Below are positions 4,061-31,487 of a stretch of 44,122 nucleotides of DNA, one piece after another; the first letter of the stretch is position 1, and the number at the start of each line of letters is the position of its first letter. The stretch is from Candidatus Rokuibacteriota bacterium (GTDB lineage: Bacteria; Methylomirabilota; Methylomirabilia; Rokubacteriales; CSP1-6), in NCBI GenBank assembly GCA_016179875.1, contig JACPCH010000031.1, positions 1 to 44,122 on the forward strand, given 5' to 3'. Under the pieces are notes generated by a model. The model saw only the letters and a list, made by a program, of their open reading frames with translations. It was not told the DNA's origin and did no database searches. Made by a program: the position numbers and the translations under genes.

Positions 4061-4145
4061 GCCGCCGGAAGAGACGTGGATCTTGACGGCTCGAGATGTG
4101 AGGGTAAGGGCCTCGAGGAGGCCGCGGCGTCGCCACGCTCGCCGG

Positions 4146-4177
4146 TTGACAAATGTTATATTGTTATGGTTACTTAT
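4146..4177 (+). promoter_or_regulatory. Sigma70-type promoter and probable GntR operator for the catabolic cluster
   Basis: Sharp AT-rich island in GC-rich DNA. Perfect TTGACA at 4146-4151, extended -10-like TGtTATGGT at 4162-4170 (spacing to TTGACA is non-canonical), tandem TGTTAT at 4154 and 4162, ACAA-N8-TTGT inverted repeat at 4149-4164. Confidence 0.65.
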
Positions 4178-4184
4178 CGGCCGA

Positions 4185-6191: not shown

Positions 6192-6197
6192 CCGCGG

Positions 6198-7079: not shown

Positions 7080-7080
7080 G

Positions 7081-8079
7081 ATGTCGGTGCCGGCCCCGGA
7101 CCCCACGCGGCTCCCGCACCGGGCGGCACTCGCCGTGTTCCTCTTCCTGATCGCGCTGCTGCCGCTTGCCGTTCCCAGCCGCTACTACCTGAACGTCATG
7201 ATCTTCGCCGGCATCCACGTGCTCCTCACCGTGGGCCTGAACCTCGTCATGGGCTACGCGGGGCAGGTCTCGCTCGGCCACGCCGGCTTCTACGGCCTCG
7301 GGGCGTACGCCTCCGGCGTGCTCACGGTGAAGTACGGCGTGAACCCCTGGGTGGCCATGGCCGCCGCGCTCGGCCTGAGCCTCCTCGTCGGCCTCGCCAT
7401 CGGCATCCCGTCACTCCACCTCCAGGGCTACTACCTGGGCATGGCGACGCTCGGCTTCGGCATCATCCTCCACATCCTGTTCGTGGAGCTCCTGCCGTTC
7501 ACGGGCGGGCCCTCGGGCCTCGTCGGCATCCCCGAGATCTCCCTGCTCGGCGTCAAGCTCAACACCGACACGCGCTACTACTACCTGGTCTGGGTCGTGG
7601 TCGGTGCCGTTCTCCTCTTCGCCTTCCACCTGGTGGACTCGCGCGTGGGCCGGGCGCTCCGGGCCATCCAGGGCGACGAGACGGCGGCGGCTCTGATGGG
7701 GATCAACACCTGGCTCGCCAAGGTCCGCATCTTCGTCACCGCGGCTGCCTTCGCCTCCGTGGCCGGCAGCCTCTACGCCCACTACGTGACGTTCCTGAGC
7801 CCCGACAGCTTCGGGTTCGGGTTTTCGATCGACCTGATCGTCATGGTGATCGTGGGCGGCACTCGGAGCATCTGGGGCAGCGTGCTCGGCGCCGTGCTCC
7901 TCACGATCCTGCCCGAGTATCTCCGGGGGCTGAAGGACTACGACATTCTCGTGTACGGCGCGGTGGTGATCCTGGTCGTCATGTTCGTCCCGTCCGGGAT
8001 CGCGGGGGCCATCGAGCAGCGCCTCCAGCGCTGGCGTCTCAAGCTGGCGACCCGGGCGCGGGTGGCGGCGGACGCATGA
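7081..8079 (+). CDS. livM: HAAT ABC transporter permease (LivM-like)
   Basis: GLNLVMGYAGQVSLGHAGFYGLGAY; SRVGRALRAIQGDETAA; ATG at 7081. Confidence 0.93.
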   Translation: MSVPAPDPTRLPHRAALAVFLFLIALLPLAVPSRYYLNVMIFAGIHVLLTVGLNLVMGYAGQVSLGHAGFYGLGAYASGVLTVKYGVNPWVAMAAALGLSLLVGLAIGIPSLHLQGYYLGMATLGFGIILHILFVELLPFTGGPSGLVGIPEISLLGVKLNTDTRYYYLVWVVVGAVLLFAFHLVDSRVGRALRAIQGDETAAALMGINTWLAKVRIFVTAAAFASVAGSLYAHYVTFLSPDSFGFGFSIDLIVMVIVGGTRSIWGSVLGAVLLTILPEYLRGLKDYDILVYGAVVILVVMFVPSGIAGAIEQRLQRWRLKLATRARVAADA

Positions 8080-8856
8080 AGGCGGGCGGGGGCGGAGCCT
8101 TGCTGGAGGCGCGCGGGCTGGAGAAGTCGTTCGGCGGCCTCCGCGCCGTGAACGGCGTCAGCCTCACGGTCGCGCCGGGGACGATCAAGGCCATCATCGG
8201 CCCGAACGGGGCCGGAAAGACCACGCTCCTGAACCTGATCACGCGGCTCGACGCGCCGAGCGCGGGCGAGATCTGGTTCGACGGTGTCCGCATCGACCGC
8301 CTGCCGCCCCATCGCATCGTCCAGCTCGGCGTCGCTCGCACCTTCCAGAACCTGCGGCTCTTCGGCGACATGAGCGTGCTGGAGAACGTGATGGTCGGGC
8401 GGCACGTCAGGACGCGGACGGAGATGGCGGGCGCGGTGTTGCGGCCGGCGGCGGCCCGCGCGGAGGAGCGCGCGATCTTCGCCGACGCCCTGCGGCTCCT
8501 CCACGACGTGGGGCTCGCCGAGCAGGCCCACGAGGCCGCCGCCAGCCTGCCCTTCGGCAAGCAGCGGCTCCTCGAGATCGCGCGCGCGCTCGCCTCGGAG
8601 CCGCGGCTGCTCCTCCTCGACGAGCCGGCGGCGGGGCTCAACGTCCGGGAGGCGGCGGAGCTCGGGGAGTTCATCCGGCGCATCCGGCTGGCGGGGATCA
8701 CCATCATCCTGGTCGAGCACCACATGGAGCTGGTCATGGAGATCTCCGACGAGATCCTCGTGCTCAACTTCGGCGAGAAGCTGGCCGAGGGGCCCGGCGA
8801 GGAGATCCGCACGCGGCCCGAGGTCATCCAGGCCTATCTCGGCGACGAGGCGGCGA

Positions 8857-8879
<23 letters not shown>
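8076..8879 (+). CDS. livG: HAAT ABC transporter ATPase (LivG-like)
   Basis: Walker A GPNGAGKTT, ARTFQN, LLLLDEPAAG, VEHHM. Confidence 0.95.
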
Positions 8880-9564
<685 letters not shown>

Positions 9565-9581: not shown

Positions 9582-10457
9582 ATGAAGCCGGCGCCATTCG
9601 AGTACGTGACCGCGGAGACCACGGAGGCCGCCGTCGCCGCCCTCGAGCGGTTCGAGGGCAACGCCCGCTGCCTGGCGGGCGGCCAGAGCCTGGTGCCGCT
9701 CCTCAACATGCGCCTGCTGCGGCCGGCGGCCGTGATCGACCTGAACCGCCTCTCCGGCCTCGATCACGTAACGGTGGACGACGGTCGGGTCCGCGTGGGC
9801 GCCCTCGTCCGCTACTCGACGCTCGAAACCTCCGCGCTCGTGGCGGAGCGGATCCCGCTCCTGGCCCGCGCGGTGCCGTTCGTGGGCGACCGCCAGATCA
9901 GGAACCGCGGGACGCTGGGCGGCGCCCTCTGCCACGCCGACCCCGCCGGCGAGATGGCTCTCGCCGCGGTGACCCTCGGCGCCTCCCTCCGCGCCGTCGG
10001 CCCGGACGGTGTGCGCGAGGTCCCCGCCGACGACTTCTTCCAGGGCCCGTACACGACGGCCCTCGCGCCGGCCGAGGTGCTCACGGAGGTGGCCTTCCTC
10101 GACGGCAGGGGAGCGGTGGCCGCCGTCGCCGAGCACGCGCGGCGCCACGGCGACTTCGCCATCGTCGCCATCGCCGCGGCCGGCCTCCCCGGCCCCGGCG
10201 ACTCGTGGCGGTGGGTGAGGATCGGCCTCGGTGGTGTCGCCCCGCGTCCGCTCTACGCCGCGCGCGCCTCCGCGCTGCTCGCCGGCACCCGGCTCGAGCC
10301 GAAGGCCGTCCGGGCCGCAGCGGAGGCGTGCCTGGCCGACGCCGATCCCGCGTCGGACATCCGCGCCTCCGCCGAGTACCGGCGCCACCTGATCCCCGTC
10401 TTCGTGGAGCGCGTGCTCGCCGAGTTGCGCGAGCGGCGGCGAGGAGGGACGCGATGA
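9582..10457 (+). CDS. Molybdenum hydroxylase FAD-binding (medium, CoxM/CutM-like) subunit 1
   Basis: MKPAPFEY, LAGGQSLVPLLNMR, IRNRGTLGG..CHADP, RRHGDFA. Confidence 0.95.
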   Translation: MKPAPFEYVTAETTEAAVAALERFEGNARCLAGGQSLVPLLNMRLLRPAAVIDLNRLSGLDHVTVDDGRVRVGALVRYSTLETSALVAERIPLLARAVPFVGDRQIRNRGTLGGALCHADPAGEMALAAVTLGASLRAVGPDGVREVPADDFFQGPYTTALAPAEVLTEVAFLDGRGAVAAVAEHARRHGDFAIVAIAAAGLPGPGDSWRWVRIGLGGVAPRPLYAARASALLAGTRLEPKAVRAAAEACLADADPASDIRASAEYRRHLIPVFVERVLAELRERRRGGTR

Positions 10458-10942
10458 GCTCGCGCCACCGGATCCGGGTCACCGTCAACGGGCGGGCCTA
10501 CGAGCGTGACGTGCAGGGGCGGCGGCTCCTGGTGGACTTTCTCCGGCACGACCTCGGCCTCTACGGGACGCACGTCGGCTGCGAGCAGGGCGTGTGCGGC
10601 GCCTGTACGGTCCTCCTCGACGGCCAGGTAGTGAAGTCCTGCCTGATGCTCGCCCCCCAGGCCGACGGCCGCACGCTCACTACCGTGGAGGGCCTGGCGG
10701 GGCGGGGCGAGCTCCACCCCGTACAGGAGGCGTTCCGCGAGGCCCACGGCCTCCAGTGCGGCTACTGCACGCCGGGGTTCCTCCTGAGCGCCGTGGCCCT
10801 GGCCGACCGCGGCGTCGTCCTCGAGGGAAAGAGCCTCCGGGCGGAGCTGGCTGGCAACCTCTGCCGGTGCACGGGCTACCAAAACATCGTCGAGGCCGTC
10901 GAGCGATACCTGCGGCAAACGGTGGGAAGTCGCCGTGGATAA
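10454..10942 (+). CDS. Molybdenum hydroxylase 2x[2Fe-2S] (small, CoxS-like) subunit 1
   Basis: [12 protein letters not shown]...[18 protein letters not shown]; ATGA overlap with the upstream stop. Confidence 0.95.
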   Translation: MSSRHRIRVTVNGRAYERDVQGRRLLVDFLRHDLGLYGTHVGCEQGVCGACTVLLDGQVVKSCLMLAPQADGRTLTTVEGLAGRGELHPVQEAFREAHGLQCGYCTPGFLLSAVALADRGVVLEGKSLRAELAGNLCRCTGYQNIVEAVERYLRQTVGSRRG

Positions 10943-13295
10943 GCTCCCCTGGGTCGGCGTGAGCGTGAAGCGCAAAGAGGACGAGCGCCTCCTCCGGGGG
11001 GCGGGACGGTTCCTCGACGACCTCGACGACACCGTCGCCCTTCACGCCGCCATCGGCCGCTGCCCCTATCCCCACGCCCGCATCCGGGGGATCGACCCGG
11101 GCGGCGCTCTCGAAATGGCGGGCGTCGAGGCCGTCCTCCTCGGCCGGGACGTCGTGGCCCGGACCGAGCCCACCAACGTGCTGCGCCCGTTCCCGGGCGC
11201 CGCGACGACCGCGTACTACGCGATGGCCCATCCCGTGGCGCGCTACGAGGGCGAGCCGGTGGTGGCGGTGGCGGCCCGCGACCGCTACGAGGCCGAGGAC
11301 GCGCTGGAGCGGATCGCGATCGACTGGGAGCCGCTCCCGCACGTGGTGGACGCGGAGGAGGCGCTCCGGTCCGGCTCCCCGCTCCTCTTCGACCAGGTCC
11401 CGTCGAACCTCCTGGCCGCCTCCACGGTGAAGGCGGGCGATCCCGACGCCGCCTTCCGGCAGGCCGCCGCGGTGGTGAAGGGGAAGCTCCGCATCAACCG
11501 GGTCACGGGGCTCCCCATCGAGACCCGCGGCCTGCTCGCGCGCTACTCCGACCAGACCCGGACGCTGGAGGTGTGGTCCTCCACCCAGACGCCTCACCTG
11601 GTCCGCGCCCAGCTCGCGCACGTGCTCCGCATGGCCGAGTCCGACATCCGGGTCATCGCGCCCGACGTGGGTGGCGGCTTCGGGATCAAGATGTGCGTCT
11701 ACCCGGAGGACGTCGTCGTCTGCCTCCTCGCCATCGACATCGGGCGGCCGGTGAAGTGGGTGGAGGACCGCGTCGAGCACTTTCGCGGATGCACGCACGC
11801 GCGGGAGGCCGTCCACGAGCTGGAGCTGGCGGGCAGCGCGGACGGGACCCTCACCGCGCTACGGGACCGCTACGTGATCGACGCAGGCGCCTACAACTCG
11901 CCGTTCGGCCCTCCGATGCTGACGAACCTCATGCTCCCCGGGCCCTACCGCCTGCGCGACGGCGAGATCGAGCGCCGCGTCGCCCTCACCAACAAGGTCC
12001 CGGTCGGACCCTACCGGGGCTACGGCCAGCCCGAGTCGAACTTCGTCCGCGAGGTCCTCCTGGACCGGCTGGCCCGCAAGCTCGGCCAGGACCCGGCCGA
12101 CCTTCGACGGAAGAACCTCCTCCGCCCGGACGAGTTGCCGTTCCAGAACCTGACCGGAGCGACCTACGACAGCGGCGACTACGTTCGCTGCCTCGACCTC
12201 GCGCTCTCCCGCGTCGGCTACGACGAGGTCCGCGCGGGCCAGGCGGCGTGGCGGCGGGAGCACCGCTACGTCGGGGTCGGCGTCTCGTGCTACGCCGAGT
12301 TCACCGGCTATCCCTCCTCCGCGTTCCTCGGCCGCACCGGCGCCGGCTTCGGCGCCTACGAGAGCGTGACCATCCGCATGGACCGTGCCGGGCGCGCGGC
12401 GATCTACACGGGCGTCTCCACGTTCGGCCAGGGGATGGAGACGACCTTCGCGCAGGTCTGCGCCTCCTCTCTCGGCCTCGAGCCCGCAGACATCACCATC
12501 TACGGGGGCGACTCGCGGGGCACGCCTTACAGCGTGGGCGGCTTCGCGAGCCGCACGATGATCGCCGGCGCCGGCGCCATCGCCACGGCCACCGGCGAGA
12601 TCCGGGCCAAAATGCTCCGACTCGCCGGGCACCTCCTCGGCGTCGCGCCGGAGCACTTGGAGGTCGCCGCCGGCGTCGTCCGGCGCACCGACGATCCCTC
12701 CGTCCAGCTCTCGATCCGTGAGGTGTCGGAGGCGGCCTTCCTCGGCCACCGTCTCCCGCCCGGGGACGATCCGGGGCTCGAGGCGACCGCGTACCACGAT
12801 CCGCCAGCCTCCGCCTTCGGCTACGGATCGGTGGCCGCGCGCGTCGAGGTCGATCCGCGGAGCGGCGCCTTCGACCTCCAGCGCTACGTCCTCGTCCACG
12901 ACTGCGGAACGCAGGTGAACCCGATGATCGTCGAGGGCCAGATCCACGGCGGGATCGCCCAGGGGCTGGCCGCGGCGCTCTTCGAGGAGCTCCAGTACGA
13001 TCGCGACACCGGCCAGCTCGTGAACGGGACGCTCGTCGATTACTTCGCCCCCAGCGCGGCCGACCTGCCGCGCTTCGAGCTGGACCACCTGGAGACGCCG
13101 GCCCCGGCCACGAGCCTCGGCGTCAAGGGGGTCGGCGAGGGCGGCACCATCGGCGCCGCCGCCGCCGTCGCCAACGCGATCGGCGACGCGCTGGCGCCCT
13201 TCGGCGTCGAACTGGATCGCCTCCCCATCACCGCCGAGTCGGTGTGGCGGGCGCTCGAGGCGGCGCGGAGTCGGCCCGCTGCCGCTGTGAACTGA
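10935..13295 (+). CDS. Xanthine-oxidase-family molybdopterin-binding large subunit L1 (not a CO dehydrogenase)
   Basis: RKEDERLLRG, WSSTQTPH, VGGGFGIK, active-site loop PYRGYGQPE, GGFASR, KGVGEGG with catalytic Glu. Confidence 0.95.
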   Translation: MDKLPWVGVSVKRKEDERLLRGAGRFLDDLDDTVALHAAIGRCPYPHARIRGIDPGGALEMAGVEAVLLGRDVVARTEPTNVLRPFPGAATTAYYAMAHPVARYEGEPVVAVAARDRYEAEDALERIAIDWEPLPHVVDAEEALRSGSPLLFDQVPSNLLAASTVKAGDPDAAFRQAAAVVKGKLRINRVTGLPIETRGLLARYSDQTRTLEVWSSTQTPHLVRAQLAHVLRMAESDIRVIAPDVGGGFGIKMCVYPEDVVVCLLAIDIGRPVKWVEDRVEHFRGCTHAREAVHELELAGSADGTLTALRDRYVIDAGAYNSPFGPPMLTNLMLPGPYRLRDGEIERRVALTNKVPVGPYRGYGQPESNFVREVLLDRLARKLGQDPADLRRKNLLRPDELPFQNLTGATYDSGDYVRCLDLALSRVGYDEVRAGQAAWRREHRYVGVGVSCYAEFTGYPSSAFLGRTGAGFGAYESVTIRMDRAGRAAIYTGVSTFGQGMETTFAQVCASSLGLEPADITIYGGDSRGTPYSVGGFASRTMIAGAGAIATATGEIRAKMLRLAGHLLGVAPEHLEVAAGVVRRTDDPSVQLSIREVSEAAFLGHRLPPGDDPGLEATAYHDPPASAFGYGSVAARVEVDPRSGAFDLQRYVLVHDCGTQVNPMIVEGQIHGGIAQGLAAALFEELQYDRDTGQLVNGTLVDYFAPSAADLPRFELDHLETPAPATSLGVKGVGEGGTIGAAAAVANAIGDALAPFGVELDRLPITAESVWRALEAARSRPAAAVN

Positions 13296-13314
13296 GGGAG
13301 GAGACGAACGGCCC

Positions 13315-13770
13315 ATGCAGATCCAGGAGACATTCACGGTGGCGGCGCCGCCGGAGACGGTGTGGACGTTCTTCGAGGACGTCCAGCGCGTGGCGCGCTG
13401 TGTGCCCGGCGTCCAGACGATCGACGTCCTCGGGCCCGACCGCTACCGGGTGGTGGCGTCGCACAAGGTCGGCTTCATCTCGGCCACGTTCGAGCTGACG
13501 ACCGCGGTGGCGGCGAAGGAGCCGGGGAAGTTCATGGAGTTCACGTCCGTCGGCAAGAGCGTCAAGGGCGCGGTCGGCGACCTGCGTTCCCGGGACCGGG
13601 TGGACTTCGAGCCCGCGCCCGGGGGCGGCACCCGGGTGCGGCTCACGTCGGAGGTGGCGGTGGGAGGGATGCTGGGCGCCCTCGGCCACAAGGCCATCAT
13701 CGGCAAGTCGCGCGAGATCACCGAGAAGTTCGCGGAGAGCCTCCGCGCGGCGATCTCGGCCTCGGCATGA
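13315..13770 (+). CDS. coxG: CoxG/SRPBCC-family protein
   Basis: FTVAAPPETVW..F.DVQRVARCVPG...VGGMLGALG; follows an M-S-L set. Confidence 0.88.
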   Translation: MQIQETFTVAAPPETVWTFFEDVQRVARCVPGVQTIDVLGPDRYRVVASHKVGFISATFELTTAVAAKEPGKFMEFTSVGKSVKGAVGDLRSRDRVDFEPAPGGGTRVRLTSEVAVGGMLGALGHKAIIGKSREITEKFAESLRAAISASA

Positions 13771-14966
13771 GCATGGGACTCTTGTCCGGCGTTCGAATCC
13801 TGGATCTGACCTGGGTGCTGGCCGGCCCCTACGCCTCGCTCGTCCTCGCCGACCTGGGTGCCGAGGTGATCAAGGTCGAGTCACCCGAGCGCGGCGACAT
13901 GACCCGCGATCTGGGGCCGAGCCTCGGGCCCCTCTCCGCCCACTTCGCCGCCCTCAACCGGAACAAGCGGAGCGTGGCGCTCGACCTCAAGAGCGAGGCG
14001 GGGCGGCGGGTCTTCTACGACCTGGCCCGGCACGCCGACGCGCTCTTCACGAACTACCGGCCGGGGGTGCTGGAGCGCCTCAAGCTCGACTACGAGCATC
14101 TGAGTGCGGAGGCGCCTTCGATCGTCTACTGTGCGCTGTCCGGATATGGGGCGACCGGGCCCTACCGCGACAAACCCGCCTACGACCTGGTGATCCAGGC
14201 CCTCTCCGGGGGCATGAGCCTCACCGGCGAGCCGGGCGGCCCTCCCGTGCGCAGCGGGATCCCGTTCGGCGATCTCGCGGGGGGCGTCTTCGCCGCGCTC
14301 GGGCTGGTTTCGGCCCTTGTCGGGCGGGCCCGGACGGGACGCGGCGCCTACCTCGACGTCTCGCTGCTCGACGTCCAGATCTCGCTCCTCTCCTACATCG
14401 CCGCCTACTACTGGGCCAACGGGGAGGTGCCGGGGCCGGTCGGCAGCGGCCATCCGACGATCGTGCCCTACGGCGCCTACCGGGCGCGGGACGGCTACCT
14501 GGTGCTGGCCATCTTCGGCGAGAAGTTCTGGCGTGATCTCTGCGAGGCGCTCGACCTCCAGGCCCTGGCGGCCGACCCGCGCTTCGCCACCAACGCCGAT
14601 CGCGTCCGCCATCGCGGCGAGCTCGAGCCCCTGCTCCGCGCCAGGCTGGCCGAGCGCACGACCGCGGAGTGGATCGCGCGCTGCGAGCAGTACGGCATCC
14701 CGGCCGCGCCCGTGAACTCCGTGGACCACGCGCTCGCCGACCTGCAGGCGTGCTCCCGGGGGATGGTGCGCGAGCACGTGCACCCGCTCCTGGGACGCCT
14801 GCGGTTCCTGGGGAACCCGATCAAGACCGCGAACGGCGACGACGACGGAGGGCGCCCGGCGCCGCTCCTCGGCCAGGACACGGCGGAGGTGCTGACGGCG
14901 CTGCTCGGCATGACGCGCGACGAGATCGAGCGGCTCGAGGCGGCGGGCGTCTGCCGCCTCGCGTGA
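13767..14966 (+). CDS. Family III (CaiB/BaiF/Frc) CoA-transferase
   Basis: LSGVRILDLTWVLAGP, LGAEVIKVE, NRNKRS, catalytic Asp in PFGDLAGG. Alternative start ATG 13773. Confidence 0.95.
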   Translation: MSMGLLSGVRILDLTWVLAGPYASLVLADLGAEVIKVESPERGDMTRDLGPSLGPLSAHFAALNRNKRSVALDLKSEAGRRVFYDLARHADALFTNYRPGVLERLKLDYEHLSAEAPSIVYCALSGYGATGPYRDKPAYDLVIQALSGGMSLTGEPGGPPVRSGIPFGDLAGGVFAALGLVSALVGRARTGRGAYLDVSLLDVQISLLSYIAAYYWANGEVPGPVGSGHPTIVPYGAYRARDGYLVLAIFGEKFWRDLCEALDLQALAADPRFATNADRVRHRGELEPLLRARLAERTTAEWIARCEQYGIPAAPVNSVDHALADLQACSRGMVREHVHPLLGRLRFLGNPIKTANGDDDGGRPAPLLGQDTAEVLTALLGMTRDEIERLEAAGVCRLA

Positions 14967-14976
14967 GGAGGAACCC

Positions 14977-16590
14977 ATGAGCGATCAGGCCCCACCGAAG
15001 CTCTCCTTCGAGTCCGCCTCAGGGATCCCGCTCCGCCCGTCGTACGGGCCCGACGACGTATCCGAGCTCGATCCGGCCCGCGACCTCGGCGAGCCGGGCC
15101 AGTACCCGTTCACGCGGGGGCTCTACCCCACCATGTACCGGGAGCGGCTCTGGACCATGCGGCAGTACGCGGGCTTCGGGGGTCCCGAGGACACCAACGC
15201 CCGCTTCCGCTTCCTCCTCGGCCAGGGGCAGACGGGGCTGAGCCTCGCCTTCGACCTGCCGACGCAACTCGGGTACGACTCCGACGACCCGGAGGTCGAG
15301 GACGAGGTGGGACGGCTCGGCGTCAGCGTCGACACCGTCGAGGACATCGAGGAGATCTTTGCCGGGATCCCGCTCGACCGGGTGAGCACGTCGTTCACGA
15401 TCAACGCGACGGCTGCCCCGATCCTGGCCATGCTGCTCGTCTGCGCCGAGCGCCGAGGCGTCGCCTGGGACCGCGTGCGGGGCACGATCCAGAACGACAT
15501 CCTGAAGGAGTACATCGCGCGGGGGACCCACATCTTTCCCCCGGGCCCGGCCGTCCGCCTCGCCGGCGACACGGTGGCCTTCTGCTGCGAGCAGGCGCCC
15601 AAGGTCTACCCGATCAGCATCAGCGGCGGTCACATGTCGGAGGCCGGCGCCAGCCCCGTCCAGGAGCTCGCCTACACCCTCGCCGACGCCATCGCCTACG
15701 TGGAGGCCCTGGTGGCCCGCGGCGTCGAGGTCGACCGCTTCGCCCCGCGGCTCAGTTTCCTCTTCTGCACCCACCAGGACTTCTTCGAGGAAATCGCCAA
15801 GTACCGGGCGGCCCGGCGCCTGTGGGCGTCCATCATGCGCGAGCGGTTCGGCGCCCGGCTCCCGGAGTCGCTGCACTTCCGGGTGTTCGCCGGCGGCGGG
15901 GGCTCGGACCTCGCGCGGCGCGAGCCCCTCAACAACATCGTCCGGACCACGATGAAGCTCCTGGCCGGCGTGCTGGGCGGCGTCCAGTCGGCGACGGTGA
16001 CGCCCTACGACGAGGCCTTCGCGCTCCCCACCGAGGGCTCACAGCGGATCGCGCTCCGCACCCAGCAGATCATCGCGTACGAGACCGGGGTGCCGACGGT
16101 GGCGGACCCGCTCGGCGGGTCCTACTTCATCGAAGCGCTGACCCGGGACGTCGAGCGTGCCGCGCAGGCGATCATCCGCCAGGTCGACGAGGGCGGCGGG
16201 ATGGTGGCGGCGATCGAGCGCGGCGATCCCCAGCGCGCGATCCTCGATCGCGCGCATCGGACGCAGGCGCGGATCGCCTCGGGCGAGAAGCCCATCGTCG
16301 GCGTGAACTGTTTCGCGGATGAGGGCCAGGCCGACCGGGAGCCGGAACTGCTCCACGGCGCCTCCCCCGAGGTCGTCGCCCGCCAGCGGGAGCGGCTCCA
16401 GACGGTGCGCCGCCGCCGGGACGGCGCGCGGGTGGAGGCGGCCCTCGGGGCGCTCCGCCGGGCGGCCGAGGGGACCGAGAACCTGTTTCCCTTGGTGCTG
16501 GAGGCCGTACGCGCCGAGGCGACGATCGGCGAGATCACGCGGGCCCTCCGGGAGGTCTTCGGTGAGTACAAGGCCGCTCCGGGCCTCTAG
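14977..16590 (+). CDS. Adenosylcobalamin-dependent acyl-CoA mutase, large substrate-binding subunit (methylmalonyl-CoA mutase family, atypical active site)
   Basis: PGQYPFTRG, WTMRQYAGF, GLSLAFDLPTQLGYDSD, GTIQNDILKEYIAR, FFEEIAKYRAARRLW, ALRTQQIIAYETG..DPLGGSYFIE. Confidence 0.95.
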   Translation: MSDQAPPKLSFESASGIPLRPSYGPDDVSELDPARDLGEPGQYPFTRGLYPTMYRERLWTMRQYAGFGGPEDTNARFRFLLGQGQTGLSLAFDLPTQLGYDSDDPEVEDEVGRLGVSVDTVEDIEEIFAGIPLDRVSTSFTINATAAPILAMLLVCAERRGVAWDRVRGTIQNDILKEYIARGTHIFPPGPAVRLAGDTVAFCCEQAPKVYPISISGGHMSEAGASPVQELAYTLADAIAYVEALVARGVEVDRFAPRLSFLFCTHQDFFEEIAKYRAARRLWASIMRERFGARLPESLHFRVFAGGGGSDLARREPLNNIVRTTMKLLAGVLGGVQSATVTPYDEAFALPTEGSQRIALRTQQIIAYETGVPTVADPLGGSYFIEALTRDVERAAQAIIRQVDEGGGMVAAIERGDPQRAILDRAHRTQARIASGEKPIVGVNCFADEGQADREPELLHGASPEVVARQRERLQTVRRRRDGARVEAALGALRRAAEGTENLFPLVLEAVRAEATIGEITRALREVFGEYKAAPGL

Positions 16591-17038
16591 CGGCGGATGT
16601 GATCCGGCCGGGGCCTTGCGGCAGCCGCTCAGGATCCTGCTCGCCAAGGTCGGACTGGACGGCCACGACATGGGCGTGAAGGTCCTGGCGCGCGCGCTCC
16701 GGGACGCGGGGTTCGAGGTGATCTACACGGGGCTCCGGCAGTCGGTCGAGGCGGTGGCCCGGACCGCCGTCACCGAGGACGTGGATGCGGTGGGCCTCTC
16801 GATCCTCTCCGGGGTCCACGTCGTGCAGACGCGAAAGATGGTCGCCGCCCTCGTGACGGCCGGCCGGGGGCGGATCCCCGTGCTCGTGGGGGGCGTGATC
16901 CCGCGCGGGGACGTGGAGAGCCTTCGCGCCGCCGGCGCGGCCGGGGTGTTCCCGTCCGGAGAGCCGCTCGACCGGGTGGTGGAGCGGATCCGGGCGACGC
17001 TCCTGGCCCGCGCGGGAGAGGGGACGGATGAGAGATGA
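16562..17038 (+). CDS. Cobalamin-binding small subunit of the acyl-CoA mutase
   Basis: DxHxxG motif (GLDGHDMG), ARALRDAGFEVIYTG, GLSILSG, LVGGVIP. GTG 16562 has GGAGG 6 nt upstream; alternative start TTG 16616. Confidence 0.92.
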   Translation: MSTRPLRASSGGCDPAGALRQPLRILLAKVGLDGHDMGVKVLARALRDAGFEVIYTGLRQSVEAVARTAVTEDVDAVGLSILSGVHVVQTRKMVAALVTAGRGRIPVLVGGVIPRGDVESLRAAGAAGVFPSGEPLDRVVERIRATLLARAGEGTDER

Positions 17039-17910
17039 TCCTTCGACCCTTCAAGTACGTCGAGTGCGGGAGCGTCGACGAGGCCACCACCACCCTCAAG
17101 CAGTACGGGGATGGCGCGCGGATCATCGCCGGCGGGACGGCGCTCGTTCCCATGATGAAGCACCGGCTCCTCCGTCCCGAGGTGCTGGTGAGCGTCATCC
17201 AGGTTCCCGGCCTCGGCGACATCGCCGCGGGCCCCGACGGCGGCCTCCGTCTGGGGGCGCTCGCTACCCACTGGGAGATCTCCCGCTCGCCGCTCGTGAA
17301 ACGGGAGAGCCCGCTCCTCGCCTATGCCTGCGGGCGGGTGGCGAGCCCCACCGTCCGGAGCATGGCGACGCTGGGCGGCAACCTCTGCTACGGCGAGTCG
17401 GCCTCGGACCCGTCGCCGGCGCTGCTGGCGCTCCGCGCCCGGGTCAGGGTCGTCGGGTCGGGCGGCGAGCGAACCCTGCCGCTCACGGAGTTCTTTACCG
17501 GCTTCTACGAGACCGGGCTCGCGGAGGACGAGGTCCTCACCGCCGTGGAGGTCCCGCCGCTCGCGCCCGGGGCGAGGTGGCGGTACCTCAAGTGGGTCCC
17601 GCGCGCGCAGGAGGACAAGGCCCTGGTCGGCCTGGCCGCTGTCCTGGTCCTCGACGGGCGCCACTGCCGCATGGCGCGGCTCGGGCTCGGCGGCGTGGCG
17701 GCCTCGCCGGTGGTGCTCCGCCGGACCGAGCAGAGCCTGGAGGGCCGGGAGCTGGACGAGCGGACGAGCGCCGAGGCCGGCGAGGTCGCGGCGGCGGAGG
17801 TCGAGCCGATGGAGGATCTCCAGGGCAGTGCAGACTACCGGCGCGACATGCTCCGCGTGTGGGTGCGGCGCGTGGTCGCTGACCTCGCCACCGGGGGAGG
17901 TGAGCGGTGA
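17035..17910 (+). CDS. Molybdenum hydroxylase FAD-binding subunit 2
   Basis: IIAGGTALVPMMK, VRSMATLGGNL, D.QGSADYRR. Confidence 0.93.
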   Translation: MILRPFKYVECGSVDEATTTLKQYGDGARIIAGGTALVPMMKHRLLRPEVLVSVIQVPGLGDIAAGPDGGLRLGALATHWEISRSPLVKRESPLLAYACGRVASPTVRSMATLGGNLCYGESASDPSPALLALRARVRVVGSGGERTLPLTEFFTGFYETGLAEDEVLTAVEVPPLAPGARWRYLKWVPRAQEDKALVGLAAVLVLDGRHCRMARLGLGGVAASPVVLRRTEQSLEGRELDERTSAEAGEVAAAEVEPMEDLQGSADYRRDMLRVWVRRVVADLATGGGER

Positions 17911-18401
17911 TGGAGTCCTTCGAGCTCACGGTGAACGGGTGCGTGGAGCGGGTGCAGGCGCCCACCCAGTGGACCCTGCTCCAGCTCCTCAGGGACGGGC
18001 TCGGGCTCCTCGGCACCAAGGAGGGGTGTGGCGAAGGATCGTGCGGGGCGTGCACCGTCCTCGTGGACGGCCGCCTCACCCGCTCCTGCCTCTCCCTCGC
18101 GCTCCGTGCGGCCGGGCGCAGCGTGCTCACGGTGGAGGGGCTCGGCGCGAACGGGCGCCGCGACCCCATCCAGGAAGCCTTCGTGCGCCACGGCGCCATT
18201 CAGTGCGGGTTCTGCACGCCGGGCATGGTCATCGCCACCAGGGCCCTCCTCGGCGTGAACCCGACGCCGGAGGACCACGAGATCCGGGAGTTCCTCTCCG
18301 GCAACTTCTGTCGCTGTGGCGGCTACACCCAGATCGTGAACGCCGTGCGCGAGCTGGCCGGTCGGCGCCCAACCGCAGTCAACCGAGGAGAGAACGCATG
18401 A
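17907..18401 (+). CDS. Molybdenum hydroxylase 2x[2Fe-2S] subunit 2
   Basis: GTKEGCGEGSCGACTV...[18 protein letters not shown]. Start GTG 17907 or ATG 17910. Confidence 0.95.
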   Translation: MMESFELTVNGCVERVQAPTQWTLLQLLRDGLGLLGTKEGCGEGSCGACTVLVDGRLTRSCLSLALRAAGRSVLTVEGLGANGRRDPIQEAFVRHGAIQCGFCTPGMVIATRALLGVNPTPEDHEIREFLSGNFCRCGGYTQIVNAVRELAGRRPTAVNRGENA

Positions 18402-19780
18402 CGCGGGCACGAGTCGATACCGTGGTCCATGGCGGCCTGGTGGTGACCTCCAGCACGGTCACCCCCGCCGCGATCGCCATCAAGGACGGGCGCATCGCGG
18501 CGATCGGCGAAGAGTCGATGATGCCGGACGCCGCCCGGTCGATCGACGTCGGCGGCAAGTACGTCTTTCCGGGCCTGATCGACGCCCACACCCACATCTG
18601 GTCGGAAGGCTTCGGGGTGACCACCCGCGCCGCCGCCTGCGGGGGCGTGACGACGACGCTGATCTTCCTCCGGGGCGACGCCAACGACAACATCTTCGAG
18701 GTCGCCACGGAGTCCAAGCGACAGGCGGTCGAGCAGGCGCACGTGGACTACGGCTTCCACGTCTACCTCTTCGACCGGGCCAGCATGATCGAGGAGCTCG
18801 AGGGGACGATGAAGCTCGGGATCCCGACCTTCAAGATGTTCATGGCCTACAAGAAGCGCCAGATGAAGGTCAGCAACGAGTTCATGCTCCGGGCCATGCA
18901 GACGATCAAGCGGCTCGGCGCGACGGCCATGGTCCACGCCGAGAACGGGGAGATGATCGATGTGCTCGAGGACCAGGCCATCGCCGCCGGGTGCTGCGGC
19001 GCCGAGCACTTCTACCCGACCCGGCCCAACGTCGCCGAGGGGGAGGCGGTCAACCGGGCGATCGAGATCGCGACCCACGTGGGGTGCCCGCTCTACATCG
19101 TGCACCTGTCCAGCGCCGAGGGCCTCGCCCGGATCAAGGCGGCGCGCGACGCCGGCCTGCCGGTGTGGACCGAGACCTGCCCGCAGTACCTGCTCCTGAC
19201 GGACGACGACATGCGCAAGTGGGGGCCGCTCGCCAAGATCGCCCCGCCGCTCCGGACGCGGCAGGACAACGAGGCGCTGTGGACGGGCCTGGAGCGCGGC
19301 TGGATCCCGGTGCTGGCCACCGACCACGCCTCCTACCCGCCGGAGGCCAAGGAGGTGGGGAAGAAAGACATCTTCCAGGCGGCGTTCGGGGCGCCCGGGG
19401 TGGAGACGCTGGTGCCGCTGGCCTTCAGCGAAGGCGTGGTGAAGCGCGGGCTGGGGCCGTCGTGGCTCGCGCGCGTGCTGAGCGAGGGCCCGGCCAAGAT
19501 CTTCCAGATCTACCCGAAGAAAGGCGCGCTGCAACCGGGCTCCGACGCCGACCTGGTCGTGATCGACCCCGACAAGCGCGTGCTGCTCCAGGCGAAGAAC
19601 CTCCACCAGGGCGCCGGCTACACGCTCTTCGAGGGGCGCGAGGTGCGCGGCTGGCCGGTCCTGACCATGGTCCGCGGCCAGGTGCTGCTCGACAACGGCG
19701 AGCTCAAGCAGGGCCCGGGCTTCGGCCAGTTCCTGCACCGCCCGATGGACGGCCACGCGCCCGCTGCGCGAACGACCTGA
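18398..19780 (+). CDS. hydA: Cyclic amidohydrolase, dihydropyrimidinase/hydantoinase/allantoinase family
   Basis: Binuclear metal ligands PGLIDAHTH, FKMFMAY (carboxylated Lys), MVHAEN, YIVHLS, ATDHA; also ETCPQYL and GSDADLV. Confidence 0.9.
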   Translation: MTRARVDTVVHGGLVVTSSTVTPAAIAIKDGRIAAIGEESMMPDAARSIDVGGKYVFPGLIDAHTHIWSEGFGVTTRAAACGGVTTTLIFLRGDANDNIFEVATESKRQAVEQAHVDYGFHVYLFDRASMIEELEGTMKLGIPTFKMFMAYKKRQMKVSNEFMLRAMQTIKRLGATAMVHAENGEMIDVLEDQAIAAGCCGAEHFYPTRPNVAEGEAVNRAIEIATHVGCPLYIVHLSSAEGLARIKAARDAGLPVWTETCPQYLLLTDDDMRKWGPLAKIAPPLRTRQDNEALWTGLERGWIPVLATDHASYPPEAKEVGKKDIFQAAFGAPGVETLVPLAFSEGVVKRGLGPSWLARVLSEGPAKIFQIYPKKGALQPGSDADLVVIDPDKRVLLQAKNLHQGAGYTLFEGREVRGWPVLTMVRGQVLLDNGELKQGPGFGQFLHRPMDGHAPAARTT

Positions 19781-19798: not shown

Positions 19799-20941
19799 AT
19801 GCGCACGCTCGCACGACTCGTCGTCACCGCCGTCGTCCTGGCCTGGCTCGGCGCCTCGCCCGCCGGCGCCCAGGACACCGTGAAGGTCGGGTTCATCAAC
19901 CCGCTCACCGGAGGCTCGAGCTTCTACGGGCAGAGCCTCCTGCACGGGGCTCAGCTCGCCGTCGAGCAGGCCAACGCCAGGGGCGGCCTCCTGGGCAAGA
20001 AGATCGAGCTGGTCGCCGAGGACGACCGCTCGGTGCCGGCCGACGGCACCTCGGCCGCCATCAAGCTCATCACCCGCGACAACGTGATCGCCATCATCGG
20101 CACCTACAATAGTTCGGTCACGCTGGCCGTGGGCGACGTGGGCCGCCGCTACGGCGTGCCGCAGATCGTGAGCTCGGCCATCGCCGACTCGATCACCGAC
20201 CGGAACGACCCGGCCAAGCCCTGGACCTTCCGCGCCAACTCGCGGGCGGGCGATCAGGCGGTGGCCATGATCCACTACCTGGTCGAGATCCGGAAGGCGA
20301 GGACCGTGGCGATCCTGGAAGAGAACACCGACATGGGCTCCGGCTGCGGCGCGGCCATCCGCAAGGAGGTCGAGCGGCGCGGGGCCCGGGTGGTGGCCGC
20401 AGAGCGCTACAACCACGGCGAGGCCAACTTCTACTCGATCATCACCAAGCTCAAGGGCCTCGGCCCCGACGGCGTGGCCCTCTGCAGTATCATCGCCGAG
20501 GGCGCCCAGATCGTGCGTCAGGCCAGGGACCTGGGCCTCAAGACCGTGTTCATGGGCAACACGGCCTTCAACCACGACAAGATCATCGAGCTGGCCGGTG
20601 ACGCCGCCTCGGGCCTCGTGGCCAACGCCACCTTCGAGGCGACCTCCAAGCGCCAGATCGCGCGCGACTTCGTCGAGGCCTACCGGACGAAGTTCGGCGA
20701 GTTCCCGCAGTACACGGCGGCCCAGGGCTTCGACGCGGTCCTGGTCCTGCTGGACGGCGTCAAGCGGGCGGGGGGCTTCGACCGCGAGAAGATCCGCGCC
20801 GCGCTCCAGGCCACCCGGAACCTGCCGCGCGTCGAGTCGGGGCCGCTGACCTTCGACGCCCAGGGGCAGGCGATGGGCTTCAAGTTCTCATACGTGACCT
20901 TCCGCGAGGGCAAGCGCGTCCTGATCTACGAGCCGGAGTGA
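19799..20941 (+). CDS. ABC transporter substrate-binding protein, LivJ/LivK type (second system)
   Basis: Signal peptide ending AGA-Q; VKVGFINPLTG...NARGGLLGKKIELVAEDD. Confidence 0.93.
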   Translation: MRTLARLVVTAVVLAWLGASPAGAQDTVKVGFINPLTGGSSFYGQSLLHGAQLAVEQANARGGLLGKKIELVAEDDRSVPADGTSAAIKLITRDNVIAIIGTYNSSVTLAVGDVGRRYGVPQIVSSAIADSITDRNDPAKPWTFRANSRAGDQAVAMIHYLVEIRKARTVAILEENTDMGSGCGAAIRKEVERRGARVVAAERYNHGEANFYSIITKLKGLGPDGVALCSIIAEGAQIVRQARDLGLKTVFMGNTAFNHDKIIELAGDAASGLVANATFEATSKRQIARDFVEAYRTKFGEFPQYTAAQGFDAVLVLLDGVKRAGGFDREKIRAALQATRNLPRVESGPLTFDAQGQAMGFKFSYVTFREGKRVLIYEPE

Positions 20942-20972
20942 GCGGGGCGGAAGGCGGAAGACCGGGCCGGCG

Positions 20973-21836
20973 ATGACGCTCGTCCTGTTCGTCCAGCACC
21001 TGGCCAACGGGCTCATCACCGGAGGTCTCTACGCGCTGGTGGCGATCGGGCTCTCCCTGATCTACGGGGTGCTCCGGATCATCAACTTCGCGCACGGCGA
21101 GATCTTCGCGGTGGGAGCCTATGTGGGCTTCTTCCTCTGGCGCGTGCTGGGGGTCCCGCTCCCGCTCGCCTTCGTGGGGGCGATGGTGGGCACCGCGGCC
21201 ATGGGCGTCGCCGCCGAGCGCCTGGTCTTCCGCCCGCTCCGCTTCGCCGACCCGCTGAACTCGATGATCAGCGCCATCGGCCTCTCCTTCCTGCTCCAGA
21301 ACCTGATCCTCCAGGTGGGCGGGGCCGAGCCGCGCCGGCTCGACCCCTTCATGAGCGGCGTGCTGCTGGTGGGGCCTATCGCGCTCCCGCTCCAGTACCT
21401 GTTCATCCTGGGGCTCGCCGGCGTCCTGATCGCGGCCATCGAGGTCTACCTCCGCCGCGCCTGGAACGGGCTGGCCCTTCGCGCGAGCTCCCAGGACCTG
21501 GGGACCGCCGCGCTCATGGGGGTCAGCATCGACCGGCTGGCGCGGGTCACCTTCGCGGCCGCCTCGGCGCTCGCGGCCGCGGCGGGCGTCCTGGTGGGCT
21601 CGGTCTTCCTCCTCCAGCCCACGATGGGCGTGTCGATGGCGGCCAAGTGCTTCGTGGTCGTGATCCTGGGAGGCGTCGGCAACCTGCCCGGCGCGATCGT
21701 GGGCGGCCTCGTGCTCGGGGTCGCCGAGAGCCTGGCCGTGGCCTACGTGTCCACCGCGCTCCGCGACGTCGTCGCGTTCGTGGTCCTCATCGTGGCGCTC
21801 CTCTTCCGCCCGCAGGGGCTCCTCAGGGGCGCATGA
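20973..21836 (+). CDS. livH: HAAT ABC permease (LivH-like)
   Basis: GGLYALVAIGLSLIYGVLRIINFAHGE; KCFVVVILGGVG. Confidence 0.93.
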   Translation: MTLVLFVQHLANGLITGGLYALVAIGLSLIYGVLRIINFAHGEIFAVGAYVGFFLWRVLGVPLPLAFVGAMVGTAAMGVAAERLVFRPLRFADPLNSMISAIGLSFLLQNLILQVGGAEPRRLDPFMSGVLLVGPIALPLQYLFILGLAGVLIAAIEVYLRRAWNGLALRASSQDLGTAALMGVSIDRLARVTFAAASALAAAAGVLVGSVFLLQPTMGVSMAAKCFVVVILGGVGNLPGAIVGGLVLGVAESLAVAYVSTALRDVVAFVVLIVALLFRPQGLLRGA

Positions 21837-22819
21837 TGCTCGCCGAGAGCTCTCACCGCTGGCCCTGGCTCCTCCTGCTCGCCGTGGCCGTCGTGGGGCC
21901 GCCGCTCACCGGCGAACCCTACGTCGCGCACCTGATGGTGCTCGGCTCGCTCTCGGCGCTCCTGGCCGTGGGGCTCAACGTCGCACTCGGCTTCGCCGGG
22001 CTCTTCTCGTTCGCCCAGGGAGCCTTCTACGGGATCGGCGCCTACGTGTCGGCGCTCCTGGTCCTCTCGAGCGGCGCGGGGTTCTGGACGGCGTTCCTGG
22101 CGGCGGGCGTGGCCGCGGGCCTCGCGGGGCTCCTGCTGGGTCTCCTGACCATCCGGCTCGGCGGCCATTACCTCGCCATCGCGACGTTCGCCTTCCAGGA
22201 AATCGTCATCGTCGTCATCCGCAACTGGGACAGCGTGACCAAGGGCCCGCTCGGCCTCTCCGGGGTGCCGGGCCCCGCGCCGCTCGCGCTGCCGGGGCTC
22301 CCGCCGCTCGAGTTCCAGAGCGAGCTGGCCTACTACTACCTGGCGCTCGCGGTGCTGGTCCTGGCCGTCGCGGTCTCGTGGCGGCTCCGGACCTCGCAGA
22401 TCGGGCTCGAGCTGCTGGCCGTGCGCGACGACGAGGTCGCGGCCCGCGCCATGGGCGTGCGCGCGGTGCAGCTCAAGATCTTCGCCTTTTCCGCGAGCGC
22501 GGTGCTGGCGGGGCTCGCCGGGAGCCTCTTCGCCCACTACGTGAAGAACGTCTCGCCCGAGTCCTTCGCCGTGGCGACGTCTTTCGCGGTGCTGGTGTCG
22601 GTGCTCGTGGGCGGGCTGGGGACGATCATGGGGCCGGTCCTGGGCGGGATCGCGCTCACGTTCCTGCCCGAGTACCTGCGCGTCTTCCAGGAGCACCGCT
22701 TCACCATCTACGGCGCGCTCCTGATCGTGGTGGTCATCGCCCTGCCCGGCGGCGTCGCAGGAGGACTCCAGACCCTCGCGCGCCGATGGCGGGCGCGCGC
22801 CCAGGCGGCCCGGCCGTGA
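21833..22819 (+). CDS. livM: HAAT ABC permease (LivM-like)
   Basis: GLNVALGFAGLFSFAQGAFYGIGAY; AVRDDEVAARAMG; ATGA overlap. Confidence 0.92.
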   Translation: MMLAESSHRWPWLLLLAVAVVGPPLTGEPYVAHLMVLGSLSALLAVGLNVALGFAGLFSFAQGAFYGIGAYVSALLVLSSGAGFWTAFLAAGVAAGLAGLLLGLLTIRLGGHYLAIATFAFQEIVIVVIRNWDSVTKGPLGLSGVPGPAPLALPGLPPLEFQSELAYYYLALAVLVLAVAVSWRLRTSQIGLELLAVRDDEVAARAMGVRAVQLKIFAFSASAVLAGLAGSLFAHYVKNVSPESFAVATSFAVLVSVLVGGLGTIMGPVLGGIALTFLPEYLRVFQEHRFTIYGALLIVVVIALPGGVAGGLQTLARRWRARAQAARP

Positions 22820-23578
22820 GCGCGTCGCTCCTCGAGGTGCGGGGCCTCAGCAGGTGGTTCGGCGGGCTCGCCGCCGTCCAGGGCTTCGAGATCGCCGTGG
22901 CCGAGGGCCAGATCGTCGGGCTCATCGGGCCCAACGGCGCCGGCAAGACCACGATCTTCAACCTCCTGAGCGGAACGCTCCGCCCCTCGGCGGGCGAGGT
23001 GCGCCTGGCGGGCGCCTCCATCGTGGGGCGGGCGCCGGAGGCGATCGCGCGCCTGGGGCTCGCCCGGACCTTCCAGGACCTCCGGCTCTTCCGCCGCCTC
23101 ACGGCGCGCGAGAACGTGGTGGTGGCCGCCTTCTGCCGGGCGCCGAACTCGCTGGTGTCGTGGACTTTCCCGCGACACCAGAAAGGGCTCGCCGGCTTCG
23201 CGCGGCAGGCCGAGGAGCTCCTGGAGTTCGTGGGCCTCACCGACAAGGCGGGGGATCTCGCCATGTACCTCTCGCACGGCCAGCAGCGTCGCCTGGAGGT
23301 GGCGCGCGCCCTGGCCACCGGCCCGCGGCTCCTCCTCTTGGACGAGCCGGCCGGCGGGCTCGGCCGCATGGAGAGCGAGATCATGACGCGGCTGATCCAG
23401 CGCATCCGGGCGAGCGGCGTCACGCTCGTCTTGATCGAGCACAACATGCACTTCTTGATGCCGCTGGTCGACCGCGTTGCGGTCATGAACTTCGGGCGGA
23501 AGATCGCCGAGGGGACGCCGGCGGCGATCCGGGAGGACCCCGAGGTGGTCGCTGCCTACCTCGGGACGGCGCAGGCCC

Positions 23579-23592
<14 letters not shown>
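22816..23592 (+). CDS. livG: HAAT ABC ATPase (LivG-like)
   Basis: GTG start overlapping the upstream stop; GPNGAGKTT, ARTFQD, LLDEPAGG, IEHNM. Confidence 0.94.
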
Positions 23593-24283
<691 letters not shown>

Positions 24284-24284: not shown

Positions 24285-24380
24285 CTAGGAGGCTGTCGGA
24301 GTATCGAGGAGCGCCACGGCGGAGCATGGGCGGTCCGAGTGTATGGGGGGTATGGAGGGCCATTTCGGGGCCCCCGATTC
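24285..24380 (+). repeat. REP/MITE-like intergenic element, copy 1
   Basis: CGAG-N4-TGGGGGGTATGGAGGGCC-ATTTCGG-GGCCCCCGAT imperfect hairpin, similar to 26779-26819; preceded by CTAGGAGGCTGTCGGAG. Confidence 0.55.
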
Positions 24381-24402
24381 AACGAAGTCTCGGAGGAGCG
24401 CA

Positions 24403-31477: not shown

Positions 31478-31487
31478 CGGACGGACG

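Follow-up and report, generated by a model that had tools for sequence, protein, structure and literature searches.

What reaction does a vitamin B12-dependent acyl-CoA mutase catalyze when the residues that hold the carboxylate of its substrate are kept and the walls of the pocket around them are replaced? This question is raised by two adjacent genes at positions 14977 to 17038 of contig JACPCH010000031.1 (44,122 nt, about 72% G+C; the whole stretch is called the window here). The window is one contig (C274) of a 3.3-Mb metagenome-assembled genome (MAG) of the Rokubacteria type, which is 77% complete. On balance we lean toward the reading that the two genes encode an active two-subunit adenosylcobalamin (AdoCbl)-dependent mutase of a rare clade, which would rearrange a substituted dicarboxylic acyl-CoA after the opening of an N-heterocycle.

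The large subunit (537 aa, 14977..16590, forward strand) is the substrate-binding TIM-barrel component and was recognized with Pfam, NCBIfam, an alignment to 1req_A, and an AlphaFold2 model. The full-length MM_CoA_mutase domain of Pfam (PF01642) spans residues 14-529 of the 537 with an E value of 4e-203, and the score against TIGR00641 of NCBIfam was 685 bits compared with a cut-off of 304. The frame is intact and every family-invariant residue is present. The model, computed from a 31-row alignment, had a mean predicted local distance difference test score of 81 and a predicted template modeling (TM) score of 0.87. Its best structural match was HcmA (4R3U, TM-score 0.92), which was also the closest solved structure by sequence (529 bits); the TM-score to the methylmalonyl-CoA mutase (MCM) of Propionibacterium shermanii (1REQ_A) was 0.90.

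The small, B12-binding subunit (about 140 aa, 16616..17038, forward strand) was identified from PF02310 (E value 5e-26), TIGR00640 (136 bits compared with a cut-off of 57), a motif scan, and a reading of the DNA. Its start is likely the TTG at 16616, 25 nt past the TAG of the large subunit; the long open reading frame listed there begins at 16319 and runs over the 3' part of the large-subunit gene. The His-on motif DxHxxG is retained as DGHDMG. A preliminary description of this locus had noted DGHDMG in place of DGHDRG, and the motif scan bore this out: DGHDRG is found in three further small subunits that the genome encodes (C157, C173, and C203), and the corresponding motif is DGHDQG in IaaH of A. 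buckelii and DGHDKG in the Formimonas protein. Both features tested for membership in the AdoCbl-dependent acyl-CoA mutases were found, a PF01642/TIGR00641 large subunit and a PF02310/TIGR00640 partner, and the earlier assignment to a two-subunit B12-dependent acyl-CoA mutase holds.

The active site was mapped by a phmmer alignment to 1req_A, in which the chain index plus one gives the literature numbering; the offset was verified on Y89, Q197, R207, and Y243/H244. Y89 (in RQYAGF), Q197 and R207 (both in QNDILKEYIAR), and H244 are retained. In MCM, Y89 and R207 hold the free carboxylate, and Q197 and H244 the thioester carbonyl. The replaced residues are Y243G, F287L, H328F, Q330G, and N366T. 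The alignment thus confirmed the four retained and the five replaced residues named in the preliminary description. Gly243 lies in the motif SGGH with the codon GGT at 15628-15630, RTHSQTSGW of MCM is changed into RVFAGGGGS (15880-15906), and QSLHTN is changed into QSATVT (from 15985). Beyond the earlier list, W288F, S329A, T331G, S332G, W334S, L363A, H364T, and T365V were also found. The AlphaFold2 model places the substitutions on, or immediately behind, the barrel strands 214-216, 260-264, 303-308, and 338-342, the expected position of the pocket-lining residues in a TIM-barrel mutase. Because R207 and Y89 are kept and small or hydrophobic side chains now form four other walls, the substrate would carry an extra substituent that MCM cannot take. 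The sizes of the residues suggest an enlarged pocket and a bulky substituent.

To our knowledge, only a handful of acyl-CoA mutase specificities are established, namely those of MCM, isobutyryl-CoA mutase (ICM)/IcmF, pivalyl-CoA mutase (PCM), ethylmalonyl-CoA mutase (ECM), and 2-hydroxyisobutyryl-CoA mutase (HCM). Compared with MCM (EC 5.4.99.2), the query has Y89, Q197, R207, and H244, and has G, L, F, G, and T in place of Y243, F287, H328, Q330, and N366. The score against the MCM equivalog NF006944, a model that also spans the fused B12 domain, was 593 bits compared with a cut-off of 876. The ICM-type signature of ICM, IcmF, and PCM, which we take to be Phe 89 and Gln 207 without a carboxylate site, is absent, as the query has Y and R; the score against IcmF NF045497 was 300 bits compared with a cut-off of 1500. 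HcmA has rqIagf and vqADilkeymaQ, and the query has rqYagf and iqNDilkeyiaR. With the carboxylate- and thioester-binding residues retained and Y/N-D/R in place of the I/A-D/Q of HcmA, the earlier exclusion of an ICM or HCM type stood.

The close relatives were taken from the best 120 of 8000 scored proteins. Nine clusters were 78-96% identical to the query, and the following match fell to 60%. The possibility that the substitutions belong to one allele, raised in the preliminary description, was tested on these sequences: the signature was unchanged in all 10 clade rows (the query and the nine clusters), one of which is truncated at Y89. None of the 111 remaining best matches has Gly243 (105 Y, 5 A, and 1 F). 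Among the matches listed in the metagenome and genome scans with the protein, the best was 57% identical and the generic motif WTMRQYAG was dominant. These comparisons point to a pocket that is rebuilt and conserved within the clade. Furthermore, near-identical copies of the stretch, at least of parts of it, were present in sequencing runs from 13 groundwater, soil, and sediment studies; no RNA run was among those listed as containing it. In contigs with at least 85% likeness (a threshold that paralogues may also pass) from four runs of four other studies, pieces that differ by about 1-3% cover the mutase gene, and a variant at 15630 (T>C) keeps the Gly243 codon. These contigs weakly support a signature that is not confined to one allele. 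They also bridge the junctions of transferase and mutase, of large and small subunit, of the FAD and FeS genes, and of the FeS gene, the hydrolase, and the binding protein, and therefore the gene order is not an assembly artefact.

How unusual such a pocket is was assessed with a search of 1.84 billion cluster representatives, in which 3880 proteins were found at E <= 1e-30. Of the 150 best matches among representatives clustered at 50% identity (P0366-P0515), only 30 had the nine-residue MCM signature YRYHFHQTN and about a dozen were ICM-like, and the remainder were mostly singleton combinations at the substrate positions. P0371, which is 50% identical to the query, has S243/L287/F328/G330/T366, near the query pattern. 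Remodelled pockets are frequent in the acyl-CoA mutase family. What is particular to the query is the exact signature with Gly243 together with the putative heterocycle-catabolic module. Of the overall interpretation in the preliminary description, the mutase family, the carboxylate site, and the clade-conserved pocket changes stood, and the phrase "new mutase class" had to be tempered in view of the 30 of 150; the query enzyme is possibly a new mutase class.

Two trees were calculated, both short-search and unrooted, on rows that we selected: the first with 47 rows (the query, 7 paralogues of the same genome, 3 A. buckelii genes, and 36 of the 120 best matches) and the second with 38. In the first tree, the query clade contained nine rows with a Shimodaira-Hasegawa-like approximate likelihood ratio test (SH-aLRT) support of 100 and a stem of 0.63 (about 0.5-0.6 across both trees), and was sister (98) to P0019/P0020/P0042. 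In the second tree, a split with 98% SH-aLRT support separated 18 rows, namely the query clade, P0371, P0458, and nine Formimonas-type rows, from all MCM-, ICM-, HCM-, "ECM"-, and IaaG-like rows and the "AGAH" rows.

The Formimonas-type proteins have the signature SGYH / RVFAGGNG / HVP. A search with the pattern RVFAGGNG matched 120 stretches, two of which are in a mutase (in Ca. Formimonas warabiya DCMF and in a Clostridia MAG), and the rest were chance matches. The Formimonas operon (L343/L344, G184:C1:1492001-1522000) encodes an amidohydrolase, a Liv-type ATP-binding cassette (ABC) system of five genes, the small and large mutase subunits (MutS and MutL), a dihydropyrimidinase (DHP)-like amidohydrolase, a family III CoA-transferase, PreT-like and PreA-like proteins, and a glyoxalase/epimerase-like protein. 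A divergent GntR(FCD) gene lies before it and housekeeping genes lie after it, and the gene set on the contig of the Clostridia MAG is identical. The best matches of the Formimonas mutase and of its DHP-like protein in the Rokubacteria-type MAG fall inside the window. No description of this operon was found in the literature searched. The genome of Formimonas, an organism in cultivation, has five mutase large-subunit homologues. Across the two lineages, the mutase recurs together with a cyclic amidohydrolase, a family III transferase, and Liv-type uptake.

In the window, the mutase genes lie within a 22.6-kb array (4083-26733) whose genes are all on one strand, the forward one, with intergenic gaps of -23 to +59 nt. 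The array is headed by a GntR/UTRA (HutC-type) regulator (4083..5012; Pfam and NCBIfam), which is followed by a first Liv-type ABC uptake system with a binding protein (5049-6191), two permeases, and two ATPases (5049..9564; Pfam). The first molybdenum (Mo)-hydroxylase (9582..13770; Pfam and NCBIfam) consists of an FAD subunit (9582-10457), a 2Fe-2S subunit (10454-10942), a Mo large subunit (10935-13295), and a CoxG-like protein (13315-13770). The nearest solved structure of this Mo large subunit is quinoline 2-oxidoreductase (1T3Q, 558 bits). The family III CoA-transferase (13764..14966; PF02515, E value 8e-130) ends 10 nt 5' of the mutase large subunit, and its nearest solved structure is succinate-hydroxymethylglutarate CoA-transferase (302 bits). 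Downstream of the mutase, a second Mo-hydroxylase (17035..18401; Pfam and NCBIfam) is represented by its FAD (17035-17910) and 2Fe-2S (17907-18401) subunits, which share 38-45% identity with their FAD/FeS counterparts in the iaa cluster of A. buckelii. Then follow a cyclic amidohydrolase of the dihydropyrimidinase/D-hydantoinase type (18398..19780; TIGR02033, 408 bits compared with a cut-off of 393), whose nearest solved structures are D-hydantoinases, and a second Liv-type ABC uptake system (19799..24283; Pfam; binding protein 19799-20941, ATPase frame 22816-23600). The last gene of the array encodes the second Mo large subunit (24343..26733; Pfam and NCBIfam), which belongs to the 4-hydroxybenzoyl-CoA-reductase/xanthine dehydrogenase-like branch. 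Its nearest solved structure is 4-hydroxybenzoyl-CoA reductase (1RM6_A, 392 bits), and it is 35% identical to the Mo subunit of the A. buckelii iaa cluster.

Outside the array, the window contains an amidohydrolase resembling cytosine deaminase (27247-28551), two oxidoreductases of the F420/LLM type (28574-30704), and an ABC system of the NitT/TauT type (30524-34412). Four Mo-hydroxylase large subunits were counted in the window, at 10935, 24343, 35435, and 38453; in the frame at 38453 (1003 aa), a 2Fe-2S-like part (38649-39122) stands ahead of the Mo domain, and this may be a fusion or two genes. An argininosuccinate-lyase-family protein on the reverse strand (41451-43685; TIGR00838, 364 bits) is extended at its N terminus by about 250 residues without a match. 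Judged by its genes, the contig as a whole resembles an island for the use of N-heterocycles.

Co-location of these genes in relatives was judged indirectly, from equal sizes of the longest contigs of the clusters. The homologues of the CoA-transferase comprised 15 clusters at 74-86% identity, after which the identity fell to 56%, and the longest contigs of transferase and mutase clusters were equal in size in four cases (91570, 22900, 31742, and 7258). The adjacent CoA-transferase, proposed as a partner in the preliminary description, is therefore conserved, with an identity gap like that of the mutase and four equal-size contigs. For the hydrolase, nine close full-length clusters (79-99%) and one fragment were found before the identity fell to 51%, and the contig size of 91570 was common to the mutase, transferase, and hydrolase matches. 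The pattern suggests that the CoA-transferase and the hydrolase co-vary with the mutase.

The genome encodes eight acyl-CoA mutase large-subunit homologues, on contigs C139, C157, C167, C173, C203, C15, C237, and C274, the last being the window. The MCM signature is complete in C139; C173 has F/Q at 89/207 and so would be of the ICM type by the signature assumed above, and C203 has I/Q as in HcmA and adjoins the only MeaB gene. C157 is IaaG-like, C167 has G328/A366, residues from which the label "ECM-like" is a guess, and C15 and C237 are more remote. No orthologue of the query was found in 182 other genomes of the order, a count that takes in three genomes of the same genus and the unpublished genomes G009, G149, and G150; the best match was 59% identical. 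The same-genus genomes (G125-G127) contained only paralogous pieces with at most 70% nucleotide identity. The pattern FRVFAGGGGSD, with Arg limited to CGN, had no match in a collection of 185,579 species, in which the genome of the window itself may be left out. From the absence in the 182 genomes and this pattern result, the mutase gene is a rare accessory gene.

The best match of the query in the same-genus genomes (57-59%) belongs to a clade with SIAGAH (Y243A), FRFG.VCGG (H328G and Q330V), and QSMFTAA, which comprises separate uncharacterized mutases. Its members are L125/L217 (G126:C264), L124 (G127:C152), L132 (G125:C19), P0014, P0015, P0017, P0018, and P0044. This "AGAH" clade (A243, G328, and V330) is common in the order, and the copy on G126:C264 adjoins another mutase gene and a CoA-transferase.

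From the gene content, we infer the activity, the order of the steps, and the CoA donor as follows. An N-heterocycle would be imported by the Liv-type ABC systems, and the ring would be hydroxylated next to N by the Mo-hydroxylases. The dihydropyrimidinase-type hydrolase would then open the ring to a dicarboxylic acid, which the family III CoA-transferase would activate, probably from succinyl-CoA. In the mutase, Co-C homolysis would give the adenosyl radical that takes a hydrogen, and the COSCoA group would shift between neighboring carbons, interconverting a substituted malonyl-CoA and a substituted succinyl-CoA; this mechanism would be as in methylmalonyl-, ethylmalonyl-, and benzylmalonyl-CoA mutases. 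As guesses, the substituent could be an aryl group, as for IaaGH, or a ureido group derived from a carboxy-pyrimidine; a citrazinate-type ring would instead give carboxymethyl, and maleimide-type rings would give dialkyl. The isonicotinate/citrazinate route, with two hydroxylations, a CoA ester, and an imidase, provides only one conceivable ring, and no paper on it was found. The literature search also found no described cluster of dihydropyrimidinase, CoA-transferase, and mutase.

A wider proposal, which we hold tentatively and at somewhat less than even chance, is that the query and Formimonas-type clades together form an unrecognized mutase class for the catabolism of N-heterocycles of the pyrimidine, pyridone, or cyclic-imide type. 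Within it, the ring would be activated either oxidatively, by Mo-hydroxylases in the Rokubacteria type, or reductively, by PreT/PreA in Clostridia. A hydrolase would then open the ring, a transferase would esterify the substituted dicarboxylate, and the mutase would rearrange its skeleton. If true, both the degradation pathway and the substrate of the mutase would be new; the latter could be, for example, a succinyl-CoA with a ureido, carboxyalkyl, or alkyl/aryl substituent.

Several observations weigh against a pathway with a new mutase substrate. The window lacks enzymes that would take a rearranged product onward (a decarboxylase, an acyl-CoA dehydrogenase, an epimerase, or a CoA ligase), and the only MeaB chaperone gene over the cut-off (C203:9214-9912) is on a different contig from the mutase. 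Beyond near-identical strains, the co-occurrence of the dihydropyrimidinase is a single contig-size match (91570), and the contigs of the 78-79% subclade (22900 and 31742) have no close hydrolase match. The transferase of Formimonas has a better match elsewhere in the genome (46%) than in the window transferase (37%), and the two are therefore not reciprocal best matches; the trees were short-search and unrooted on selected rows. Moreover, the pair of transferase and mutase would be self-sufficient only with a succinyl-CoA product, and an MCM-like function is therefore favored on this point.

Such a function is the main rival explanation: a functional MCM would act on methylmalonate derived from a thymine-like 5-methyl ring, and transferase and mutase would form a cycle, the former making methylmalonyl-CoA at the expense of succinyl-CoA and the latter restoring succinyl-CoA, with a net conversion of methylmalonate to succinate. 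The four conserved residues (Y89, Q197, R207, and H244) fit this explanation, as does a window without downstream enzymes, in which the cycle closes only on a succinyl-CoA product; the dihydropyrimidinase, the cytosine-deaminase-like hydrolase, and the Mo-hydroxylases also suit pyrimidine chemistry. However, the paralogue on C139 already has the full MCM signature, another nine positions of the pocket depart from MCM and do not vary within the clade, with Gly243 in 0 of 111 other matches, and the query lies beyond the 98% SH-aLRT split from the MCM-like rows. We consider an MCM function unlikely.

The other rival of similarly low probability is the IaaGH reaction, (2-aminophenyl)succinyl-CoA <-> (2-aminobenzyl)malonyl-CoA or an aryl analogue, in which case the array would be a second, divergent cluster of the auxin/oxindole type. 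PMC8360864 describes the GGG motif of the iaaF product, places IaaGH in the anaerobic indoleacetate pathway as a proposed enzyme that was not assayed, and reports benzylmalonyl-CoA made with Ccr. With the iaaF primer printed in that paper, the A. buckelii iaa cluster was located, and its order was iaaF (with the GGG motif), the small and large mutase subunits, the FAD, FeS, and Mo subunits, a family III transferase (IaaL), and a binding protein. The array resembles this cluster in having a mutase, a Mo-hydroxylase of three subunits, a transferase of family III, and a Liv-type binding protein, and an aryl group would fit well beside Phe328 and the small hydrophobic walls. The glycine-rich stretch 328-334 (RVFAGGGGS compared with RMIAAGGGGG) is the sole feature of the replaced pocket that the query and IaaG have in common. 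IaaG is 46% identical to the query and keeps Y243 (CGYH), and it has SYNF and QTMALC against the SFLF and QSATVT of the query.

In addition, IaaG paired with the C157 gene of the same genome as the query in both trees (SH-aLRT 100 and 99), and the query was placed elsewhere; the C157 gene sits with HyuA/HyuB and a Mo subunit. In the window there is no CoA ligase and no match to the iaaF-type dehydrogenase or to HyuA/HyuB; in the genome, C123 carries the best IaaF-like gene, and HyuA/B have their best matches on C157 and C123. The identification of the query as IaaG was rejected on the 46% identity, the Y243 of IaaG, and its pairing with C157. The check proposed in the preliminary description, a signature shared exactly with IaaG, thus came out negative, and the two are not orthologues. 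An IaaGH reaction of the query is improbable on these grounds. No characterization of a phenylsuccinyl-CoA or benzylmalonyl-CoA mutase was found in the literature search.

The C157 region itself (about 1900-15200, G000:C157) is a genuine iaa-type cluster for anaerobic indoleacetate degradation. It contains a mutase small subunit (3850-4206), the IaaG-like large subunit (4275-5888, 52% identical to IaaG of A. buckelii), a Mo large subunit (5906-8152, 47%), a family III transferase (8155-9345), an epimerase-like gene (11065-11433), HyuA (11439-13349, 52%), and HyuB (13604-15118, 62%).

An inactive or decaying paralogue under relaxed selection, which would agree with the many paralogues in one genome, the lack of a dedicated chaperone adjoining the mutase, and the absence from 182 related genomes, is highly improbable given an intact frame, DxHxxG motif, and set of family-invariant residues, a signature invariant across 78-96% identical relatives from several sources, the tight embedding in an operon, and near-identical copies in the runs of 13 studies.

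Taken together, the enzyme is a variant of a known family, and its claim to a new substrate class and pathway is plausible. The clade would point to an undescribed route of N-heterocycle breakdown in bacteria of groundwater, soil, and sediment, and a new carbon-skeleton rearrangement could serve biocatalysis. With the MCM signature in a fifth of the nearest representatives, most of the chemistry of the family is unexplored. Furthermore, the operon supplies its own tools for a test, as its regulator and two binding proteins could reveal the ligand and its transferase could make the CoA ester.

Among the known systems, HcmAB (4R3U) is the best match of the query in both sequence and structure and has the same split architecture, but HcmA has I at 89 and Q at 207 and binds no carboxylate, in contrast to the Y and R of the query. 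MCM (1REQ and human 2XIQ) resembles it in fold (TM-score 0.90) and in the carboxylate and thioester residues, and the radical 1,2-shift is presumably common to both. However, the identity is 42-45%, MCM is fused and the query is split, and 13 substitutions lie in the pocket region. ECM and the hexylmalonyl-CoA mutases ActD/MatBQ, the latter proposed for actinonin and matlystatin in PMC5719088, are similar in concept, which is the chemistry of MCM on a malonyl-CoA with a larger 2-substituent and a retained carboxylate site. They differ in context, which is the ethylmalonyl-CoA pathway with crotonyl-CoA carboxylase/reductase or a biosynthetic cluster, as against the proposed heterocycle catabolism.

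The Formimonas-type enzymes (DCMF; P0020, P0042, and P0069) form a neighboring clade with F328, G330, and a common module. They are about 50% identical to the query, keep Y243, and have P366 and N332, and their operon has an epimerase-like gene and a PreT/PreA-type reductase for ring activation, unlike the Mo-hydroxylases of the query operon. IaaGH differs from the query in Y243 and I328/A330/C366, in its separate clade, in a ring opener of the HyuA/HyuB type where the query operon has a dihydropyrimidinase, and in the IaaF and IaaB that the query window lacks. Both are split mutases that keep Y89/Q197/R207/H244, replace the H328-W334 stretch with a glycine-rich one, and are encoded with Mo-hydroxylase, family III CoA-transferase, and a Liv-type binding protein, and both would act after the hydrolytic opening of an N-heterocycle, which for the query is our proposal. 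By analogy, the iaa cluster of A. buckelii may serve as the precedent for the logic of this operon.

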